DNA of 64,000 nucleotides, from IMG/VR virus record IMGVR_UViG_3300037087_000281; one strand, written 5' to 3'. Made by a program: the position numbers and the translations under genes. Origin of the DNA: an uncultured virus (IMG/VR IMGVR_UViG_3300037087_000281). Lineage: Duplodnaviria > Heunggongvirae > Uroviricota > Caudoviricetes. Positions 33,526 through 61,594 of this stretch are shown here, in pieces; the first letter of the stretch is position 1; each line of letters begins with the position of its first letter. The notes beneath the pieces are model-generated. The model was not told the origin of the DNA and searched no databases. It saw only the letters and a program-made list of their open reading frames with translations.

Positions 33526-33720
33526 TGTTCGCCTCAATTTCCAAAAGGTTTAGAGTTCGCCGCTGCCTGAGGTTTGGGTTTGCCTGGCAAGCGTCATCGA
33601 AAGCCATAGCGATCATTTCCCGGATATCTTCAGGAACGTAGACGGAGCACTGAGACAAGAGTCCTAGTGTTCCCAAATAGCGCATATGTTCGGACTCCAT
33701 TTGGTTTGCTTTCCTTGTAA

Positions 33721-33732
33721 ATTATACGGTTA
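33721..33732 (-). promoter_or_regulatory. CCGTATAAT promoter motif
   Basis: TAACCGTATAAT upstream of AAGGAAAGCAAACC. Confidence 0.65.
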
Positions 33733-34175
33733 GGTGGGATAAGACTTTCAGGACATCACCCTCAAAGCCCATTTGCTAACTGAAGTCTTCTTCGTCCGCT
33801 TCCGCACCAATGTCGTCTTCATCCTCGTCGTCCATCGGGTCGTCCGGCATGCTGTCGAAGTCCGTGAAGGCAGGCGCAGGCGGGGTCATGTGCGCCGCCA
33901 TGTGCTCCATCAGCGCCCCGCGTTTGCTCACCTCGGCGTCGGCTACTGGGACGGTCAGTCCCCTAGCCGTGATATTGCCCTGGGCGTCCTTGACCACGGC
34001 GCGGACCATGCCGCCACCAGTGCTCTGGTGCGCCTGGAAGACCAGCTGGTACCCGTTGCCGAGGTCCTGCGAGCTAAGGTCAGGCATTATTACCTCCATC
34101 CCCACTTGATTACCGCTCCGATGGCAAACCCAGACAAGAGGATCAGCCAGTCGGCAAAGGTCGTCTTTGGTCGGG

Positions 34176-34775
34176 TCACACGCACCCCACTTTCCGGACG
34201 CGAACGACGACCTCGCCGGTGCGGAGTATCTGCTCACCCTTTGGAGTCAGGACGTCTTTCGGCTTCGCGACCAATCGCTCCCGTGCGTAGCGGAGGGTTC
34301 GGCACGTCTGTTCAGCACGGCTCCAGTTTTTGTCTTCGATTTCTTTCCGAAGCTCTACGAGCATCTTGGCCTCTTCTTTCTCCACCTCGTGGATGGCATT
34401 GGCGGTCGGCGGAACGTTCGCGCGGGCGATCAGGTCGAGGAACCGCAAGCGGTCCATGACGTTCCCCGGCACGTGGCAGTGGACGGCATCGGGCTGCGCC
34501 AGACTGCGCAGGAACGCGAGGTCCTTTAGTTGCAGACGGACTTGCGGGATCTTGACTTCAATGCTTGGCCTGCTGAGGTCTTCCGTTTTGGTTTTTGGCA
34601 TATAGCTCCTGTATTGGAAATTCTTACTCGGGATAGGAAGGTAAGACGAAGGAGCATCGGCGCAGAGCGTCTTTTCTCCACAGTCCTCGCAAGCTCCATT
34701 CGAGGTGCCGAAGAAAGACGACTGTCTGTTAGCGTCCTTCATCCGGTGTTGGAAACACGGTTCGCATAAGAACAT
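34176..34775 (-). CDS. Hypothetical protein with N-terminal Cys cluster
   Basis: AAGGAGAGCAG SD; CEPC...CEDC. Confidence 0.55.
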   Translation of the reverse strand: MFLCEPCFQHRMKDANRQSSFFGTSNGACEDCGEKTLCADAPSSYLPIPSKNFQYRSYMPKTKTEDLSRPSIEVKIPQVRLQLKDLAFLRSLAQPDAVHCHVPGNVMDRLRFLDLIARANVPPTANAIHEVEKEEAKMLVELRKEIEDKNWSRAEQTCRTLRYARERLVAKPKDVLTPKGEQILRTGEVVVRVRKVGCV

Positions 34776-34791
34776 CTGCTCTCCTTTGGCT

Positions 34792-34864
34792 TTCGCCTTC
34801 GGCTCCTGATTAAATCATACGGGAGCCGATTCAACCCGTAGCCAACGGGCATCGTCAGGGCGAA
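34792..34864 (-). ncRNA. Type I hammerhead-like ribozyme (variant core)
   Basis: UUCGCC-CUGACGA-U-GCCCGU/ACGGGU-U-GAA-UCGGCUCC/GGAGCCGA-A-GGCGAA; intergenic, three stems around a CUGANGA/GAA core. Confidence 0.55.
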
Positions 34865-35241
34865 CTTACTCCGACTGGAGGATGTTGAAGCTGAACCCCT
34901 TCCTCCAGTTGTCCATAATCTTCTGGGCGAGGACGCGCAGGGCGGTCGCGTCCTCCACCTCGACCCTGAACGTCCGCTTGTGGGCCTTCTTCATCACTAC
35001 CGTCACCGGGAACTTCATCTTGCTCTCCTTTCATCTTAGTCCGGCAACAGCGCCCGAAGTTTGGCAGCTTTCAGCGCAGCGGTTGAAAGCTGATTGAGTT
35101 TCTTGTTGATCTGGCGAAGCTCGCGCTTCGCGTCTTCGTACAATGTTCCGCTGAGAGCAGGCGGCGGAAGCGGCTGAACGGTTTCCAGCGCTTTGAGCAG
35201 CACCACTTCCAACGCCTTCATGTAACGGATCTCGTCTCGGC

Positions 35242-35724
35242 TCATGCGACCTTCTCCTTGGCGGGCTCCAGCCAGCTGTCCCACCAATTGCACTCGGTGC
35301 ACTTCATGTACCAGCGGCCCTCGTTCGGTCCGCCGCCGGTCTTGAACGCCTTCATCTGGTGCTGGCACTTGGGGCAGTTTACCAGCTTGCGCCCGAAGGT
35401 CCAGAGGGCGCGGAGCACGTCGGTCAACCGCCGCTCCCATCCGCCGACGCGCGTCACCCAGCGCCCGTACTTCGAACCGAGGGGCTTGCCCTGCGGGTCC
35501 GCCAACCAGCATCGGATGGAATCCTTGGCGGCTTCGGCGGAGTGGCCGTCGGCTCCGACCGAGGAGCGGATGACGATGATGACTCCGGGCTTGACCGGGA
35601 GGTAGTATTGGTGCTCCCCGCTGATCAGTCCCGTATAGCCCCACAGCGGCGTGCGGGTCCCCTTGAGGCACGGCAGCGCGGCCTCGAACTGGGCACGGGA
35701 GAAGTGGTCCACGCTCATGCACAT
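35242..35724 (-). CDS. Hypothetical protein with C-terminal zinc ribbon
   Basis: CPKC...GPNEGRWYMKCTEC. Confidence 0.6.
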   Translation of the reverse strand: MCMSVDHFSRAQFEAALPCLKGTRTPLWGYTGLISGEHQYYLPVKPGVIIVIRSSVGADGHSAEAAKDSIRCWLADPQGKPLGSKYGRWVTRVGGWERRLTDVLRALWTFGRKLVNCPKCQHQMKAFKTGGGPNEGRWYMKCTECNWWDSWLEPAKEKVA

Positions 35725-36062
35725 GCCTCCTGAGCGACTTCCACGGATTGAATGGCTTTCAAATCCCAGATGCAGCCGGACGCGCAATCCCACCCGTAGT
35801 ACCAAGCAGTGTGGTAAGTCAACCGCCGCGCATAACAGTAAGGCGCGATGATGATGCCTTGGTGCTTGGCGGCGACCTTGGACCAGTCTATGTAATACAG
35901 ATAGTTTCCGCTGGGTTCGTCCCGAATGAAGTCGACACACCATCGCTTCCAGTCATCTTCAACGGAGATCCAGAATCCACGTGGTTTGAAACTATCTTTT
36001 TGCGAGTAAGATCGCTGGGCTAGTTCCAAGGGCGCTGCCGCGTAGTGAAAAAGATTGCTCAT
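35715..36062 (-). CDS. Hypothetical phage protein
   Basis: KPRGFWIS...IDWSKVA...GIII...WYYGWDCASGCIW. Confidence 0.6.
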   Translation of the reverse strand: MSNLFHYAAAPLELAQRSYSQKDSFKPRGFWISVEDDWKRWCVDFIRDEPSGNYLYYIDWSKVAAKHQGIIIAPYCYARRLTYHTAWYYGWDCASGCIWDLKAIQSVEVAQEACA

Positions 36063-37795: not shown

Positions 37796-37870
37796 CCGTT
37801 TCACTCTGCGTTTGCACGGGCTTGTGACCGTTCCCGGCGGGTGATTTGCCTACCAGAAGCCGCATTACGG
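37796..37870 (-). ncRNA. Twister ribozyme A (type P1, with P3 hairpin)
   Basis: CCG-UAA-UGCG-GC-[hairpin]-CGG-UCACAAGC-CCG-UGCAAA-CGCA-GA-GUG-AAA-CGG. Confidence 0.85.
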
Positions 37871-38004
37871 GGATTGGATACCCCGCTAGGATGGCCCTTG
37901 CCGTCACCCCGCTCAGCTATCTCGCTCAGCTCGACTAGCTCCGTGCGGCTGAAGTACAACCGCTGGTCCGGGTCGGTGGTAAGCAGTCGTTGAATCTGTA
38001 CCAT
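37801..38004 (-). CDS. Small hypothetical protein whose 3' end overlaps twister A
   Basis: AAGGAGAGCAAAC SD, ATG 38004. Confidence 0.45.
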   Translation of the reverse strand: MVQIQRLLTTDPDQRLYFSRTELVELSEIAERGDGKGHPSGVSNPRNAASGRQITRRERSQARANAE

Positions 38005-38014
38005 TGTTTGCTCT

Positions 38015-38072
38015 CCTTCCCATCCGCTTTCCACCTCCCCGACTTTGGACGGGGCATCGGCGCGTTGGAAGG
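38015..38072 (-). ncRNA. Twister-like ribozyme E (variant, 3-bp P2)
   Basis: CCUUC-CAA-CGC-GC-CGAUG-CCCCG-UCCAAAGU-CGGGG-...-GCG-GA-UGG-GAAGG. Confidence 0.7.
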
Positions 38073-38481: not shown

Positions 38482-38504
38482 TGGTTTGCTCTCCTTTTTG
38501 ATTT

Positions 38505-38551
38505 CCACTCTGCGTTATGCGCGGGCTTGTGACCGCCGTTGGCCGCATTAC
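38505..38551 (-). ncRNA. Twister ribozyme B (core intact, P1 not evident)
   Basis: UAA-UGCG-GC-CAACG-GCGG-UCACAAGC-CCGC-GCAUAA-CGCA-GA-GUG. Confidence 0.8.
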
Positions 38552-38595
38552 AGTAGGACGAGCCGCTCGCCCGCCCTACGCATCACCTCCTGTGG

Positions 38596-39639: not shown

Positions 39640-39700
39640 CCTTTTCCATCCGCTTTCTGCCCTCCGGACTTTGGACCGGACGTACGGCGCGTTCAAAAGG
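39640..39700 (-). ncRNA. Twister-like ribozyme F (variant, 3-bp P2)
   Basis: CCUUUU-GAA-CGC-GC-CGUACG-UCCGG-UCCAAAGU-CCGGA-...-GCG-GA-UGG-AAAAGG. Confidence 0.7.
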
Positions 39701-41634: not shown

Positions 41635-41696
41635 GCGAGGGGCTTGAGACCTCGCTTGCCGCATTACGGCACGTCTCTCGACGTTCCGCTCTCTGC
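41635..41696 (-). ncRNA. Twister ribozyme C (circularly permuted, P5-type)
   Basis: GCA-GA-GAG-CGG[hairpin]CCG-UAA-UGC-G-GC-AA-GCGAGG-UCUCAAGCC-CCUCGC. Confidence 0.8.
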
Positions 41697-42673
41697 TAGA
41701 CCGATGCCGGGGGAAGGCACAATCTGTGCACTGCCTCGACGAACTTCGTCTCGAACGCGGCTTCCGTGTTAACCACAACGCACTCCCCGCCGAGCGCCGC
41801 GCAAGCCGCCTTCAACGCGTCGTTGGGGTTCTCGTCGCCGATGTGGATGTAGTCGAGGATGATGCCGGACTGCTTGAGCACCGGCACCCATTCGGGGAGG
41901 ACGTTCGTGCCGCTGTCACCGCCGTCAGAGACGACAATAAAGTGATGAAGGCCAACCGAACTGGGGTGCTTGCGGCAGCACTCGACGCCTGCACGGATAG
42001 ACGCCATGATGTCTGTCCCGCCGGAGTTGACGCTGTCCATGCCGACCTGGATTCGGTCAACCACTGCGCGGACCTCGTCCGCCGTGCCCGAGTCGAAGAC
42101 AACCTTTGCGCCAGCCCCGAAGGCGATCACCGCAAGGGAAGACTGTGGGAACTTGGCGAAGCGTGCTTCGATCTCCTGCTTGGCGAGCTTGGCGACCAGC
42201 TCGATGCGGGAGGGCGGCTGCATGTGCGGCTTGCTCCAGTCGATCGCGACGTGGAAGCTGCCGATCAGGTCGTGCTGGATGACGCGGGTCTTGATCTCCT
42301 CGTCTGTGACCGTGAAGGTTGGCGGCATGCCGGGAACCAAGGGGTCGATCATCTTGATGATTTCCTGCTGTTCCCACCCGAGGTCTTGGCCGCTCATCAC
42401 TACCGCGATGGCGTCGGCGACTTTCGCGCGGATGCTTGCCAGCCTCTCGGGCGTCCAGAGGTACTGGTCGGCGAAGCCCTTCTTGTTCTTGTCGGCGGCG
42501 ATCCGCTCGCTCATGCTGCCGGACACGTCGAAGCAGAAGACCAGCTTGGCGAACTCAGAATAAACATCTCCAAGCTTGCGAAGGACCGAGTTGCCGTTGG
42601 TTTGTAGGGATTCAGTTTTTCGAAGAACGATATCATTCGTCCCTTTGAAGATCATGCTGTTGTCAAGTTTCAT
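41696..42673 (-). CDS. von Willebrand factor A domain protein
   Basis: FCFDVSGSM (MIDAS), GGTDI, IVVSDG. Confidence 0.85.
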   Translation of the reverse strand: MKLDNSMIFKGTNDIVLRKTESLQTNGNSVLRKLGDVYSEFAKLVFCFDVSGSMSERIAADKNKKGFADQYLWTPERLASIRAKVADAIAVVMSGQDLGWEQQEIIKMIDPLVPGMPPTFTVTDEEIKTRVIQHDLIGSFHVAIDWSKPHMQPPSRIELVAKLAKQEIEARFAKFPQSSLAVIAFGAGAKVVFDSGTADEVRAVVDRIQVGMDSVNSGGTDIMASIRAGVECCRKHPSSVGLHHFIVVSDGGDSGTNVLPEWVPVLKQSGIILDYIHIGDENPNDALKAACAALGGECVVVNTEAAFETKFVEAVHRLCLPPASV

Positions 42674-43344: not shown

Positions 43345-43399
43345 GGACGGGCTTGGAACCGTCCAGCCGCATTACAGGGCCGAAGCCTTGTCCTCTGCG
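43345..43399 (-). ncRNA. Twister ribozyme D (circularly permuted, P5-type)
   Basis: CGCA-GA-GGA-CAAGGC(UUCG)GCCCUG-UAA-UGCG-GC-U-GGACGG-UUCCAAGC-CCGUCC. Confidence 0.88.
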
Positions 43400-56039: not shown

Positions 56040-57791
56040 TCACTCGGCGATCGCTTCGGGCATCAAGTCCTCCCACCGCTTGAACTCGACCTCTCGCTGC
56101 TTCTCGCGCCATCGAGACAAGAACTCCTCGACGGGTCCGCCCTCGTAGTCCGTCAAACTCCCCATGCAGAAGCCCGCAGACGCCTCGGCGATCAGCGGAA
56201 CGTGGAGCTTGATCCCGAACTCCCGCTCGGAGTAGGCCGCTGCTCCCTCCTGCATGAGGTGCTTGCACTGCTTGTACGCTTCTGGGAGGTCTCGCAAGTG
56301 GACTCGGAAGACCAGCGCGTCGTGGATCTCCATCAAGCATTTTTGGAGAAGCCCGTAAGTCCGCGACTTCATCTCCAGGAGGGCGAGCGCGATGAGGATT
56401 AACCCATGCGCCGAGCCTTGAATCGGACTGTTAACCGCTTGGTTCGCCCAGAAAGTCTTGCGCCCGTGCTCGTTGGTCTTGTTGATGTCCCGGCGAAACC
56501 CGTAGAGCGTCTCGACGAATCCTTCATTTTCCGCCTGGTCGTGCATCTTCTGAATGAACGCGGCGACTCCCGTGTACGTCTTGAAGTACTTGTCGTAGAG
56601 CTTGACGAGCCGCTTGTAGGTGATCCCGGTCATGTCGGCGTTCTTCCCGTCGATGGCCCTGATCTTGGCGACCACGTACGGGTAGAGGGACTCCCTGCCG
56701 AGGCCGAAGATGACGCCAAAGTGCATGTTCTTCACCATCTTGCGGAGGTTCTTCTCGGCTTTGATCCTCTCCACGGGCCACCCCGTGAGGGAGTTCCCGA
56801 CGAGGCAGTGGATGTCCTGCCCCGTGTTGAACTGGGAGATGAGGAGCCGGTCCCCGGATATCTCCGCGAGCATCCTTACCTCGATCTGACTGTTCTGCGT
56901 GACGACGCCGCAAGCCAAAACATAGTTGTGATCCGGCTCCACCGTTATCGTGAACATCGGTTGAGTTCCTGCCGGTTCGATGGCGATGATCTTGTGATTT
57001 AATCCGCGCTTTATTTTCTTTACGAGCCGATTAGAGTACCCGTAACTAAGGCCGAAATGATCAGCTACTTTTGAAGCTGTCCAGTTGTCGACGCATACAA
57101 ACTGATGTAGGAACTGCATGTCTTCATCAGACAGTTTGCTGTTTGGGTTCCCTCGCCCGTTGTAAGAACGGCGCTTTTTAACGCCTTCTCTAAGCGCCTT
57201 GATCCTGACCGCATGATCTTGTTTCGCGTAGATGACTCTCATGTGTTCCGCTCGATGATCGTACCTCAACTTGTACTCTAAATTTCCCGGAGAGTTGTTG
57301 GTAGGATCATCGTCTTTATGATGAACTTCATGCCCTTCTGGGCAAGGTCCCAAATAAGCTTCGGCCACCAAATGATGCTCGTAGTCATATATGAAATGAG
57401 ACCTGGAGTACCACGTCTTGTAACCTCCTCCGTTAGATCCCGGGCGACAAGGCACCATCCGTTCCCCGATCCGTAACTCTTCTGTGGTTTTGACTACAAC
57501 TCCGGAAGTTTTTCTCGCTTGTACTTTTTCCAGAGTGGGCCATCTGTGATCATAGGAAGCGATGACGGACTCATCGTTGTCGAACGTTACTTTATACGCT
57601 TTTTTCGGACGGACCGTCTTAATGCGTGTTACTGCGCCCCATTTTATTCTTCCATCTCTGTAAGTAAGCACGGGGGTGCCGACGCTTAAGCTGCTTATCT
57701 TTACTGCCCCATTCAATGTTTGTATGAGGGTGTCCGGATGCAAGCACTGGTCGGCAGCGAGGAACACCCAGAGGTCATCGAGATCCTTCAC
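56040..57791 (-). CDS. DNA polymerase family A, C-terminal (palm/fingers) subunit, intein-containing
   Basis: GTG coupled to upstream stop; motif A ADQ|SQIEVR, motif B RKMVKNMHFGVIFG, NSPIQGSA, motif C IHDAL. Confidence 0.88.
   Translation of the reverse strand: MKDLDDLWVFLAADQCLHPDTLIQTLNGAVKISSLSVGTPVLTYRDGRIKWGAVTRIKTVRPKKAYKVTFDNDESVIASYDHRWPTLEKVQARKTSGVVVKTTEELRIGERMVPCRPGSNGGGYKTWYSRSHFIYDYEHHLVAEAYLGPCPEGHEVHHKDDDPTNNSPGNLEYKLRYDHRAEHMRVIYAKQDHAVRIKALREGVKKRRSYNGRGNPNSKLSDEDMQFLHQFVCVDNWTASKVADHFGLSYGYSNRLVKKIKRGLNHKIIAIEPAGTQPMFTITVEPDHNYVLACGVVTQNSQIEVRMLAEISGDRLLISQFNTGQDIHCLVGNSLTGWPVERIKAEKNLRKMVKNMHFGVIFGLGRESLYPYVVAKIRAIDGKNADMTGITYKRLVKLYDKYFKTYTGVAAFIQKMHDQAENEGFVETLYGFRRDINKTNEHGRKTFWANQAVNSPIQGSAHGLILIALALLEMKSRTYGLLQKCLMEIHDALVFRVHLRDLPEAYKQCKHLMQEGAAAYSEREFGIKLHVPLIAEASAGFCMGSLTDYEGGPVEEFLSRWREKQREVEFKRWEDLMPEAIAE
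56892..57746 (-). mobile_element. Intein (285 aa) with HNH endonuclease in polymerase motif A
   Basis: Starts CLHPDT, block B ASYDHRW, VHHKDDDPTNNSPGNL, ends HNYVLACGVVTQN followed by Ser. Confidence 0.9.
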
Positions 57792-57943
57792 TCGCGCGTC
57801 ACCGTCCACGACGCGCCCTCCAGGAGCGCCGTTACGTCCTCTTGAATTAGCTCTATGACCTGGGCGTCGGACATGGATGCGAACTGCTCCTCCGTGGCCC
57901 AGAAGTCCTCTAACTCCTTGGTGACCGTGACGGAGACGCGCAT
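57788..57943 (-). CDS. Small acidic hypothetical protein (51 aa)
   Basis: MRVSVTVTKELEDFW...; coupled to neighbours on both sides. Confidence 0.5.
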   Translation of the reverse strand: MRVSVTVTKELEDFWATEEQFASMSDAQVIELIQEDVTALLEGASWTVTRE

Positions 57944-58329
57944 CAGTCCCCCTCCCGGCGGTACGAGAACGGCTCCCGCATTCTGGAACCGCTGTGCCCG
58001 AGGTAGGTGCTGGTGTCGCTGCGCTCGTGGGGCCGGGTGGCACTCTCCGCCGCCGTGTTCCAGTGGAACAGCGGGTTCTCCGGAGCGCGGGTCTCCAACC
58101 AGGCGTAGTTGAAGAGGTTGCGGAGGTTCTCGGAGTTGCCGGTCCGCTCGTACTTCTCCAGCTCCTTCCGCATCCGCGTCATGTACTTCATCCTCCTGCT
58201 CGGACCGCCGTGCGGGGCCTCGTAGCGCGGGTACCCGAAGGCGAGGCGATTGGCGGCCTGCTGGACGAACTCGATGAAGTGCGGCCAGTCGTGACGGAAC
58301 TTGCCGCTGCACCAGACGGTGAACTCCAT
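57943..58329 (-). CDS. Hypothetical protein
   Basis: GGAGG SD; NRLAFGYPRY...YERTGNSENL. Confidence 0.6.
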   Translation of the reverse strand: MEFTVWCSGKFRHDWPHFIEFVQQAANRLAFGYPRYEAPHGGPSRRMKYMTRMRKELEKYERTGNSENLRNLFNYAWLETRAPENPLFHWNTAAESATRPHERSDTSTYLGHSGSRMREPFSYRREGD

Positions 58330-59108: not shown

Positions 59109-59774
59109 TCACCGCATCTTACTCATAGCCGCCGTCTGTTTCGTTAGTGGCTCAATGTCATCGAACAGTATCGGAATCTTTACCTTCAGTTCAGCCAGTA
59201 GTGGAATGGTCACCTGTCGCATCTGCGGATGGGCTTCTTTGGTCGTCCGCATGATCATAATGTGCCGAAGATTGCGGAGGTTAGTCGTCGTGATTATCCT
59301 GCTGGCAAGGGCGTTGGGAAAGACAGAGCGGGCAATCTGAGGAGCGCATCCCTCGTTGATTAACTTCTGGTACCACTTCTCGGCGTCCTCGATCCCACAT
59401 ATCCACGAGGCCTCTCTCGCTACCTCGTCTGGCTCCCCGTTGAAAGGCGTGATAAAGCTAGGGGGCATCTTCTTCTGGTAGTTGACAAAACGCGTACTTT
59501 CCTGTGTGAAAGCGCACAAGCGGTGCCGCACCCACTCGTGGGTAATGCCGCGGTCCACCACCATGTCGATGGTAACCGAGGCGTGCTCCACGATGCTCCA
59601 GTCCCCGTGGCCCAGAACCACGGTTTCGATGAATCGTCTCCAGGAGTCCTCGGTCTGCGCTTCTTCAGAGCGGTGGGAGATCCGCCCGCACCACTCGATC
59701 TTCTTCAGCAGCTTGACGCCGGCCTCCAGGTCGGGGACGTCCATCAGCCGCGCGTACGGCGTCACTATGTTCAT
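59109..59774 (-). CDS. thyX: Flavin-dependent thymidylate synthase
   Basis: SIVEH; RGITHEWVRHR...QESTRF; ARSVFP; AHPQMR. Confidence 0.92.
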   Translation of the reverse strand: MNIVTPYARLMDVPDLEAGVKLLKKIEWCGRISHRSEEAQTEDSWRRFIETVVLGHGDWSIVEHASVTIDMVVDRGITHEWVRHRLCAFTQESTRFVNYQKKMPPSFITPFNGEPDEVAREASWICGIEDAEKWYQKLINEGCAPQIARSVFPNALASRIITTTNLRNLRHIMIMRTTKEAHPQMRQVTIPLLAELKVKIPILFDDIEPLTKQTAAMSKMR

Positions 59775-61594
59775 TTCTCCTCCAAAGCCAATCTCCACCG
59801 GCGGTCCGACACCATCAAGTTCTGCATCATCGGGTTCCCGTGCGTATTCTGGAAATTGAGGATGCCCTCGGCCTCGGCCCGGTCCCCCTTGCCGCTTCGC
59901 AGCCTCCCCGTGACCGCGCCAACTAACCACCATATAGTTCTAAGTTCGCCATCGTGGAGTTCTGCGCTCCTCGCGTACCCGGCGAGGTAAGTCGACGCGA
60001 TCTTGCCGATAGTCCTACGCTTCATGACTAATTCCAACACCGGGTCTCCGGTCTCAGCGAGGAGAAGTTCCAGGATCTCCTTCCCGGTCCCGCGCGTGAC
60101 AGTCCCCCTCCTGTCCGTCGGCGTCGGCAGCTTCAAGACGTCGTAGAGCAGGTGGGCCACCTGCTGCGAGGAGTCGCACTCGAAGCCGGGATCGTCGGCT
60201 AACTGCCTGAGATGCCTATCTAACTCTGCGATCATCTTCGGGACTGCCTCCGACGCTTTCTTCCAGTTTTCCCAATCAAGGATCGGCCCGCGCCGCTCCA
60301 TCTTGTCGAGAGTCATCCCGGCCCTTACGTACACTTTGGCGAGAGCTTGATTGACTTGCGGGCTAAACCTCTCTTCCAGTCGCTTCGTCACGTCACAGTC
60401 TCCGCAGTTGCGCAAGACGAGGAGATCGAGCGGCACGTTGGCATAGTTGACCGATCCGAAAGTGCCGTCGCCGCCCGCATGTTCGATCACGGTGTCTTTG
60501 TAGTCTCCGAACTCGGGGAAGAACAGGTATGTGAGATTCTCTAATCCGCAGCTACGAAGAAAAGAATGCCGTAGGAACGTCCCGTACATCGTGTCATAAT
60601 CGTACCCTCGCAATTTGGCTCCGAGGTATATCGCGCTCGCGGCCGAGTCATATGACCCGTTCTGGAGAGTCTTCGGAATCGATACGTCTTCTAACAAGAG
60701 TTTCAACCGCCGACGTAAACTCTCACGCGTCTTCAAATCGGAACTCGCTTCAGGATGATCGATGACTACGGACCAAGCGCGGCCCGTCCAAGTCTTCCAG
60801 TTCCCTATGACGCGAAACTTTCCGACTCCGAATCCCGCCAGTAGCATCACTTTCTTCCCATTGACTGTTCCATCTTCTACGTCATAACTGACTCGCCGTC
60901 CGGCCTTTGCTTCGGCCTTGATGATCTTCTCCATCGCGTCGAACGTCTCGACGGACTCTACCGCTTCGTAGCGCCTCGACTTTATGTAACCCCATCGACC
61001 GGGATTCTTTAAGATCGTTGCGACGGCCCGCAGCTTCTCCTTCCAGACGTTGAACTCCCATCCAGCCGCTTCTCCTCTTCGCAGAAGGTATGACGGGTGC
61101 TGGAGATAAACACAATACGCATTCCACGGTTCGTGCCAAAATACCGGATGATCTTTCTTTAATGCTTTCCCGAGAAGTTGTTCTCCCGCTATATCCCCGA
61201 GTATCACGTGAACGACGGCCTCTCCGCGGTTAAGGTCGAGAGCTTCCGAGTTGTAAACGGCACAGCACTGGAGTTCCCGCTTCGTCGGGTCGCGCTCTTG
61301 GCCATCATCGGCAGGCCAGCACCTCACTCCCGCGTTCTGCACGTCGAAGTGGCCCCTCGTTAATCCGACCTCCGACAGCGCCTCCCACAAGAGCTTACCG
61401 GAGCTCCCCGACAGCTCCAAGCCCTTCGCGTTGTCGATCTTCCCCGGCCACGCTCCCCAAAGCATGGCCCGTCTGCCCTTGACGCGCGATAGTCCCTTGA
61501 TCTTCTTGACTCCGGCTATACCGTCGAGGGGGCAATGCGAACACCCCAAGACTTCGCCTCGGCGGGTCACCGGCTGGTTAAACAGATTTTTCAC
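59771..61594 (-). CDS. DNA polymerase family A, N-terminal subunit: UDG4-like domain + 3'-5' exonuclease + thumb
   Basis: CSHCPL...G.SGKLL...RC.P...HPSYLLR; YDVED, QNGSYD, DTM; QVAHLLY; STYL; TGRLRS...NFQN. Confidence 0.85.
   Translation of the reverse strand: MKNLFNQPVTRRGEVLGCSHCPLDGIAGVKKIKGLSRVKGRRAMLWGAWPGKIDNAKGLELSGSSGKLLWEALSEVGLTRGHFDVQNAGVRCWPADDGQERDPTKRELQCCAVYNSEALDLNRGEAVVHVILGDIAGEQLLGKALKKDHPVFWHEPWNAYCVYLQHPSYLLRRGEAAGWEFNVWKEKLRAVATILKNPGRWGYIKSRRYEAVESVETFDAMEKIIKAEAKAGRRVSYDVEDGTVNGKKVMLLAGFGVGKFRVIGNWKTWTGRAWSVVIDHPEASSDLKTRESLRRRLKLLLEDVSIPKTLQNGSYDSAASAIYLGAKLRGYDYDTMYGTFLRHSFLRSCGLENLTYLFFPEFGDYKDTVIEHAGGDGTFGSVNYANVPLDLLVLRNCGDCDVTKRLEERFSPQVNQALAKVYVRAGMTLDKMERRGPILDWENWKKASEAVPKMIAELDRHLRQLADDPGFECDSSQQVAHLLYDVLKLPTPTDRRGTVTRGTGKEILELLLAETGDPVLELVMKRRTIGKIASTYLAGYARSAELHDGELRTIWWLVGAVTGRLRSGKGDRAEAEGILNFQNTHGNPMMQNLMVSDRRWRLALEEK

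Follow-up and report, generated by a model that had tools for sequence, protein, structure and literature searches.

Does the short spacer between two small genes of an uncultured tailed phage encode a self-cleaving ribozyme, and what would such a ribozyme do there? What part such ribozymes play in the biology of bacteria and phages has yet to be settled, according to a review (PMC6765202). A sequence-only reading of the locus had proposed a hammerhead-like junction with a non-canonical core in this spacer. The window, by which we mean the whole 64,000-nucleotide stretch of DNA analysed here, is a piece of a tailed-phage genome with 57.6% G+C. Its plus strand carries structural genes, among them those for a major head protein and a tape measure, and its minus strand carries an array encoding a UvrD-like helicase, HNH endonucleases, a resolvase, an SbcCD-like nuclease, a clamp loader, a UvsX-like recombinase and pieces of a DNA polymerase. 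One IMG/VR record (G001) is the identical fragment, and the same phage, 100% identical, recurs in several IMG/VR loci. The stretch is contained in DNA runs from peat metagenomes and is partially matched in runs from lake water and soil; none of the 20 sequencing runs listed is an RNA run containing it. We conclude that the replication-gene operon of this peat phage probably contains a self-cleaving ribozyme in this spacer, a type I hammerhead with a rare variant of the core.

A three-way junction upstream of a ribosome-binding site

The element forms the spacer between a 50-aa ORF (34866-35018) and the ORF that starts at 34775, both on the minus strand (Table 1). Every part listed in the sequence-only reading is present, in the sequence and in the MFE fold, at the minus-strand position it had been given: stem I is open, and stems II and III are capped by loops. 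Both departures from consensus that it named, a U15.1-A16.1 pair and a U-U at the base of stem II, are seen in the sequence. It had also placed the end of the element a few bases before a sequence leading into an ATG, and AAAGGAGAGCAG-ATG is indeed found 3' of the element, with the ATG at 34775-34773.

Folding of 34870..34785 (ViennaRNA) gives the same three stems as the MFE structure, at -31.2 kcal/mol with a z of -3.0, a value equalled by 1 of 200 shuffles. On the plus strand, the mirror-image fold is equally stable (z -4.0). We take the minus strand to be the functional one because the G.U pairs in stem II of the window copy, and in stem III of a homologue described below (L084), would be C.A on the plus strand. 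The core motifs, the G.U pairs and the orientation of the genes all point to the minus strand.

Table 1. Features of the candidate ribozyme, its flanking genes and related elements in the window
Feature	Coordinates	Strand	Basis or detail
Whole three-way junction, candidate type I hammerhead core variant	34792..34864	minus	sequence, MFE fold, descriptor
Stem I, 5' strand UUCGCC	34859..34864	minus	pairs with 34792-34797 (U34864-C34859 with G34797-A34792)
Core C3-A9, CUGACGA	34852..34858	minus	sequence
Stem II, GCCCGU/ACGGGU	G34850-U34845 with A34839-U34834	minus	first pair is G.U; sequence, MFE fold
Stem II with loop and flanking mismatch	34833..34851	minus	sequence, MFE fold
Loop II, UGGCU	34844-34840	minus	sequence
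U.U mismatch, positions 10.1/11.1, stem II base	U34851, U34833	minus	sequence
Core G12 A13 A14, GAA	34830..34832	minus	sequence
Stem III, UCGGCUCC/GGAGCCGA, with 15-nt loop	34799..34829	minus	U34829-C34822 with G34806-A34799
Inverted 15.1-16.1 pair, stem III base	U34829-A34799	minus	sequence, MFE fold
Unpaired position 17	A34798	minus	sequence
Predicted scissile bond, A34798 (17) / G34797 (1.1)	34797..34798	minus	inferred from hammerhead numbering
Stem I, 3' strand GGCGAA	34792..34797	minus	sequence, MFE fold
3' tail, AGCCA	34787..34791	minus	sequence; complementary to loop II
Ribosome-binding block AAGGAGAGCAG, then ATG of downstream gene	34773..34786	minus	sequence
Upstream 50-aa ORF	34866..35018	minus	TAA stop 1 nt before stem I
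Downstream ORF, 199 aa	34176..34775	minus	Cys-rich 58-aa N-terminus in frame with conserved 141-aa protein
Twister-P5	43347-43399	minus	Rfam 49.7 bits, gathering 37.6, E 2.3e-8
Twister-like, twister-P1	37798-37871	minus	Rfam 43.8 bits, gathering 67.2, E 2.1e-7
Twister-like, twister-P1, directly upstream of AAAGGAGAGCA	38502-38554	minus	Rfam 36.8 bits, E 2.2e-5
Twister-P5-like, directly upstream of AAAGGAGAGCA	41637-41697	minus	Rfam 36.4 bits, gathering 37.6, E 5.9e-5
Weak twister-P1	39642-39698	minus	Rfam 24.3 bits, E 0.081
Copies of AGGAGAGCA, low ends	34777, 35021, 37719, 38009, 38487, 39634, 41622, 42676, 43735	minus	

The junction against chance expectation

A short motif that has been picked after the fact may be nothing other than helices that meet by chance between two genes. 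We therefore scored the element with a relaxed type I descriptor that asks for CUGANGA and GAA, for a non-G at 17 and for stems of 4 bp or more; the pair at 15.1/16.1 may be any standard or G.U pair, and the base of stem II may be offset by 0 or 1 nt. In 200 dinucleotide-shuffled versions of the 64 kb window, both strands included, this descriptor found 7 matches with stems of at least 4 bp and none with stems of at least 5 bp; under the same descriptor the stems of the real element are 6, 6 and 8 bp long. A search of 84 sequences, the window and loci L001-L083 (1,466,231 bases, both strands), returned no type I match besides the element itself, which it found three times, in the window, L001 and L002. 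The empty class of longer stems in the shuffles, together with the lack of any other type I match in 1.47 Mb, argues that the element is not a product of chance.

Weak matches do arise, which is the other point in favour of a chance origin. When type II and type III descriptors were added, two further matches appeared, each with stems of 4-5 bp. One is a type III match at 31377-31301, AU-rich, inside an ORF and repeated in a locus of the same phage (L005), which we judged to be chance; the other, a weak type III match in L010, is an example of what chance produces at this level. Against a chance origin of the element stand the shuffles and compensatory changes in two independent metagenome contigs, presented next. 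For practical purposes these homologues refute it, and we hold a chance junction to be extremely improbable.

Two diverged homologues keep the core while the helices change

An alignment-based scan of JGI metagenome contigs for the downstream gene returned five loci (L084-L088). The element is present in two of them. In L084 it occupies 726-803, directly upstream of a gene of the 141-aa family whose protein is 79% identical to that of the window; the upstream 50-aa ORF is homologous too, at 68% identity. In L086 it occupies 344-410, again directly upstream of the 141-aa gene, with a protein 47% identical and an upstream gene that differs from that of the window. L085, L087 and L088 are without the element, so that three of the six distinct loci with the 141-aa gene carry it.

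Both homologues keep stem I as (U)UCGCC/GGCGA(A), and both keep AGCC of the tail. The core reads CUGAYGA in all three sequences (CUGACGA in the window and L084, CUGAUGA in L086), GAA is invariant, and U15.1-A16.1 and A17 are present in three of three; the consensus A15.1-U16.1 pair occurs in none. L084 and L086 have G10.1-C11.1 with a 1-nt bulge where the window has U.U instead, and the window copy, to judge from this comparison, has lost G10.1-C11.1.

In the alignment of the three (A3), the structure as written out leaves 98.5% of 68 cells paired; sliding the partners by 1-3 columns lowers this to 25-46%. In four of the 24 pairs both partners differ between the sequences: one of stem II, two of stem III and one of the predicted pseudoknot considered below. 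The varying stem II pair occurs as three types (C-G, G-C and A-U), and stem III of L086 is a different, shorter hairpin that still starts with U-A. Stem I is invariant in the three homologues and, since it never varies, is supported by complementarity alone. The covariation score was reached by 4 of 500 shuffles, which with three sequences is suggestive and not a proper statistic; the statistics are weak because there are only three distinct sequences and one near-identical variant. A lake-water contig from run X12 differs from the element, in minus-strand letters, by U34844 to C, U34840 to A and U34813 to C. These listed differences all fall in loops, none in a stem or the core, and with them loop II reads CGGCA, as it does in L084 and L086.

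Homologue covariation and core conservation had been put forward as checks on the original proposal, and both came out in its favour: the core is kept in all three sequences, and the helices vary with compensatory changes. Because the junction, U15.1-A16.1 and A17 are kept in two homologues and the helices covary, we read the element as a conserved RNA. That it is a selected RNA of hammerhead architecture appears highly probable.

Predicted pseudoknot and 3' product hairpin

The sequence-only reading did not include one further feature. The five bases after stem I, AGCCA (34791-34787), are a perfect complement of loop II, UGGCU (34844-34840). The complementarity, as read from the letters alone, recurs in three of three homologues, with 5 bp in the window and 4 bp each in L084 and L086 (CGGC:GCCG), and its outer pair undergoes a double change, from U-A in the window to C-G in the other two. 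A pseudoknot between loop II and the 3' tail is thus predicted, which would hold stem II and the extension of stem I together.

The predicted 3' product starts with GGCGAAAGCC in all three homologues. In each of them it is predicted to form a hairpin, GGC-GAAA-GCC (-5.1 kcal/mol), that leaves the ribosome-binding site single-stranded. Speculatively, the invariance of stem I and the tail could be because of this product hairpin.

The same invariance of stem I and GGCGAAAGCC could reflect a binding site, as would be expected of a structured regulatory or protein-binding phage RNA that is unrelated to hammerheads and merely resembles them; the silence of the Rfam hammerhead models, detailed below, would fit such an RNA as well. 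A mere resemblance would have to extend to all 10 fixed core nucleotides (CUGA-GA and GAA), to a non-G at position 17, to three helices in the right order and to a predicted stem I/II tertiary pairing of the hammerhead type, with a descriptor match never this good in shuffles. We regard an unrelated RNA as very unlikely on these grounds.

Curated models and wider searches

The scan of the window with Rfam release 15 at gathering thresholds returned twister-P5 only and no hammerhead. At E <= 10, the 251 nt of 34700-34950 gave no hammerhead, with isrN (9.8 bits) as the sole match, and L084 and L086 gave no hammerhead either, the only match being mir-598 (19.9 bits). A search of the identical record G001 with RF00163 had 0 matches. 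The element does not reach the Rfam hammerhead gathering threshold and has no match even at E <= 10. A search with hammerhead covariance models had been proposed as a check, and here the outcome was negative: no Rfam hammerhead model matches the element at E <= 10. We label it a core variant because it fails both the A15.1-U16.1 consensus feature and all curated Rfam models. That feature is near-universal among hammerheads and not absolute. Such weakened-core copies are missed by curated models.

Further members were sought in several ways. A blastn search of 33700-36000 against phages gave 11 records, none covering the element, and one with the L086 element gave 29 records, all with at most 34% coverage and E of at least 3. 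By descriptor, no element was found in 79 loci around helicase relatives (29-37% identical, except L005, which is the same phage at 100%). A covariance model built from alignment A3 (R1) scores the window element at 103.9 bits; over 1.49 Mb of DNA it found the three family members only, the next match being at 13.6 bits (E 0.58, L029). In viral_contigs, a strict pattern matched only the phage itself and a loop-based pattern had 0 matches. A relaxed pattern gave 18 matches in genome_contigs and 5 in viral_contigs; those other than the phage itself we attribute to chance, since none has three stems of at least 4 bp. With the patterns used, no further members were found in viral_contigs or in one genome per species (185,579 species). 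So far, the hammerhead family looks small and confined to this phage lineage.

Published hammerheads with the same deviations

With Rfam Hammerhead_1 (RF00163) the element shares type I topology and the CUGANGA...GAA core; unlike members of RF00163 and the other Rfam hammerhead families, it gives no match at E <= 10 and by curated scores is a non-member. The closest likeness is to natural variants described by Perreault et al. (2011, PLoS Comput Biol, PMC3088659). There, A15.1-U16.1 is given as the best conserved pair of the hammerhead class, mutation at 15.1/16.1 slows cleavage by 10-fold or more, and the self-cleaving activity of a natural U15.1-A16.1 hammerhead is described as 'low, but detectable', its weakness being attributed to the lost A15.1-G5 contact. 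Natural stem II starts with U10.1-U11.1 exist as well (PMC3088659). The element resembles these variants in its inverted 15.1-16.1 pair, in its intergenic, phage-type context and, in the window copy, in U.U at 10.1/11.1. It differs from the published U-A variant, seen once, in that U-A and A17 are here fixed in three diverged sequences, and it differs further in that the window copy combines both deviations. The published U-A sequence may be one of the 'marine metagenome' drawings of Figure S6. The cleavage-triplet rule has been extended from NUH to NHH (Kore et al., 1998, as cited in PMC3088659 and PMC3884650).

The predicted pseudoknot has precedents in the same source. About 40% of hammerheads, of all three types, have a stem I/II pseudoknot, typically of four or more pairs and with nucleotides immediately beyond a stem (PMC3088659). 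Like those, the element would pair the terminal loop of stem I or II, over 4-5 bp, with bases beyond the other stem. The type II consensus, as described there, pairs loop I with the tail after stem II; in the type I element here, loop II is predicted to pair with the tail after stem I. Both core deviations and pseudoknots of this kind are therefore already in print for natural hammerheads, a point that the original proposal did not contain. The element is a new member of an already published hammerhead variant and does not constitute a new class.

The proposal had been cautious about activity, and that caution stands: the Rfam models are silent, and the published natural U15.1-A16.1 ribozyme cleaved weakly (PMC3088659). 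The window copy moreover carries two weakening deviations at once, U15.1-A16.1 and U.U. Its cleavage rate is probably below that of a consensus hammerhead. We consider useful self-cleavage by the window copy to be reasonably likely.

The same facts lend themselves to another explanation, that of a hammerhead-derived structure without useful cleavage, kept for another role as a folded 3' or 5' UTR element, for example in shielding the neighbouring ribosome-binding site or in stabilising the transcript. Such a structure could do without A15.1-U16.1 and, in the window copy, without G10.1-C11.1; it would fit the weakness of the published natural U-A variant (PMC3088659) and the lack of an Rfam match, and its pseudoknot tail abuts the ribosome-binding site. 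A pure fold, however, needs no invariant unpaired CUGAYGA, GAA and A17, and these persist at 47% protein identity with the stems changing around them; the position is also the same as that of bona fide twisters, to which we turn below. We find a non-cleaving role unlikely, and return to the reading of the element as a self-cleaving hammerhead.

Ribozymes and a repeated ribosome-binding block

Four twister matches with E <= 6e-5 lie within about 6 kb of the same strand, and only that at 43347-43399 is above the gathering score. The three sub-gathering twisters show conserved UAAUGCGGC, CAAGCCC and GCAGAG blocks. The sequence AGGAGAGCA occurs nine times on the minus strand against 0.74 expected, and five of the nine copies stand directly behind a ribozyme or ribozyme-like element. 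The tail of the hammerhead ends directly at one copy; the AAAGGAGAGCA block begins 4-6 nt after the end of the hammerhead (4 nt) and of the twisters at 38502-38554 and 41637-41697. A fourth copy adjoins the element at 39642-39698, and a fifth adjoins a second copy of a motif found there, at 38018-38070. About 70 nt separate a sixth (37727) from the twister at 37798-37871 that precedes it, and the spacers preceding the copies at 35029, 42684 and 43743 hold no recognised element.

The original proposal had described the hammerhead as a second ribozyme class at an equivalent position, and as to position this proved correct: ribozymes or ribozyme-like elements repeatedly adjoin AGGAGAGCA, and the hammerhead has the same site relative to the ribosome-binding block as the twisters at 38502-38554 and 41637-41697. 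Judged by this arrangement along the strand, a ribozyme joined to a ribosome-binding block is a repeated module in the operon. The hammerhead and the operon twisters (RF02684, RF03160) share the strand, an intergenic site a few bases 5' of the ribosome-binding block and a presumed job, self-cleavage of a polycistronic RNA; in fold and sequence they are unrelated. Published work has twisters and hammerheads sharing gene neighbourhoods (review PMC6765202) and several hammerheads often flanking prophage genes (PMC3088659). Processing of polycistronic transcripts by such ribozymes has been suggested and is not established (review PMC6765202). The core variant, the U.U stem II start, the pseudoknots and the twister and hammerhead neighbourhoods are all in print, and should hold no surprise for ribozyme specialists.

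The motif at 39642-39698 and 38018-38070 (minus strand) is twister-like. It consists of AACGCGCC, a hairpin with loop UCCAAAGU, and GAAAGCGGAUGG, and each of the two copies adjoins AGGAGAGCAAAC-ATG. The same motif is present in three other IMG/VR contigs (L116, L117 and L118), where its hairpin stem covaries and where Rfam gives it no match at E <= 1. Compared with the printed twister consensus, CCC in the loop is changed to CCA and GAGGG to GAUGG. These are positions that we take to pair in twister, and the two changes could then be a compensatory pseudoknot change. The motif may be an unrecognised twister variant.

Proposed action of the element

In the mechanism we propose, the element would be transcribed within the minus-strand replication-gene operon, and the pseudoknot would bring stems II and I into contact, as it does in other hammerheads with such a pairing. 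The A34798-G34797 phosphodiester would then come under attack from the 2'-OH of A34798. The upstream fragment would receive a 2',3'-cyclic phosphate and end in the folded ribozyme, and the downstream mRNA would have a 5'-OH and start 22 nt before the ATG with its ribosome-binding site exposed. With twisters at equivalent sites, the polycistronic transcript would be cut into gene-sized pieces with defined ends, and those ends may set the stability or translation of the pieces.

A more elaborate version, which we offer tentatively and think doubtful, takes U15.1-A16.1 and A17 as the mark of a stable sub-lineage selected for moderate speed, within an operon of seven modules whose cleavage product refolds. 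The seven would be four twisters, two unrecognised twister-like copies and the hammerhead, each fused to a ribosome-binding block, and cleavage would create the 5' end of each mRNA. The GGCGAAAGCC start would refold after cleavage into the 5'-terminal GGC-GAAA-GCC tetraloop hairpin. This hairpin would be a competitor of both stem I and the pseudoknot and could thus prevent religation and free the ribosome-binding site, so that cleavage becomes irreversible; it could also cap the 5'-OH end against 5'-end-dependent RNases.

Whatever the details, two unrelated ribozyme classes at the same site 5' of a ribosome-binding block would tie cleavage directly to the expression of single genes, and the operon offers a compact test bed for the role of self-cleaving ribozymes. 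That the most conserved pair of the class was inverted and then kept through divergence suggests that a weakened core is tolerated, or wanted, in nature.

Flanking genes

A terminator scan of the minus strand from 34300 to 35400 found no terminator-like site. For the plus strand alone, the scan lists an 11-bp hairpin at 35065-35092. This hairpin closely precedes the ribosome-binding site that serves the 50-aa ORF and is part of the spacer in front of another AGGAGAGCA.

The downstream 199-aa ORF has no Pfam or PHROG match. Its protein has 33 relatives, mostly of about 140 aa, and the Cys-rich 58 residues are common to only three. The Cys-rich segment (34602-34775, minus strand; CxxC...CxxC) runs without a stop into the 141-aa protein, which has its own AGGAG-ATG at 34601, and in P0033 the segment is joined to another C-terminus. 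It may be a small zinc-ribbon gene that became fused by stop loss.

Farther along the minus strand, DNA polymerase matches (phrog_17) extend over two ORFs, 56040-58043 and 59771-61594. The first of these (56040-58043) also has an HNH endonuclease domain, and the polymerase gene may have been interrupted by a homing-endonuclease insertion.
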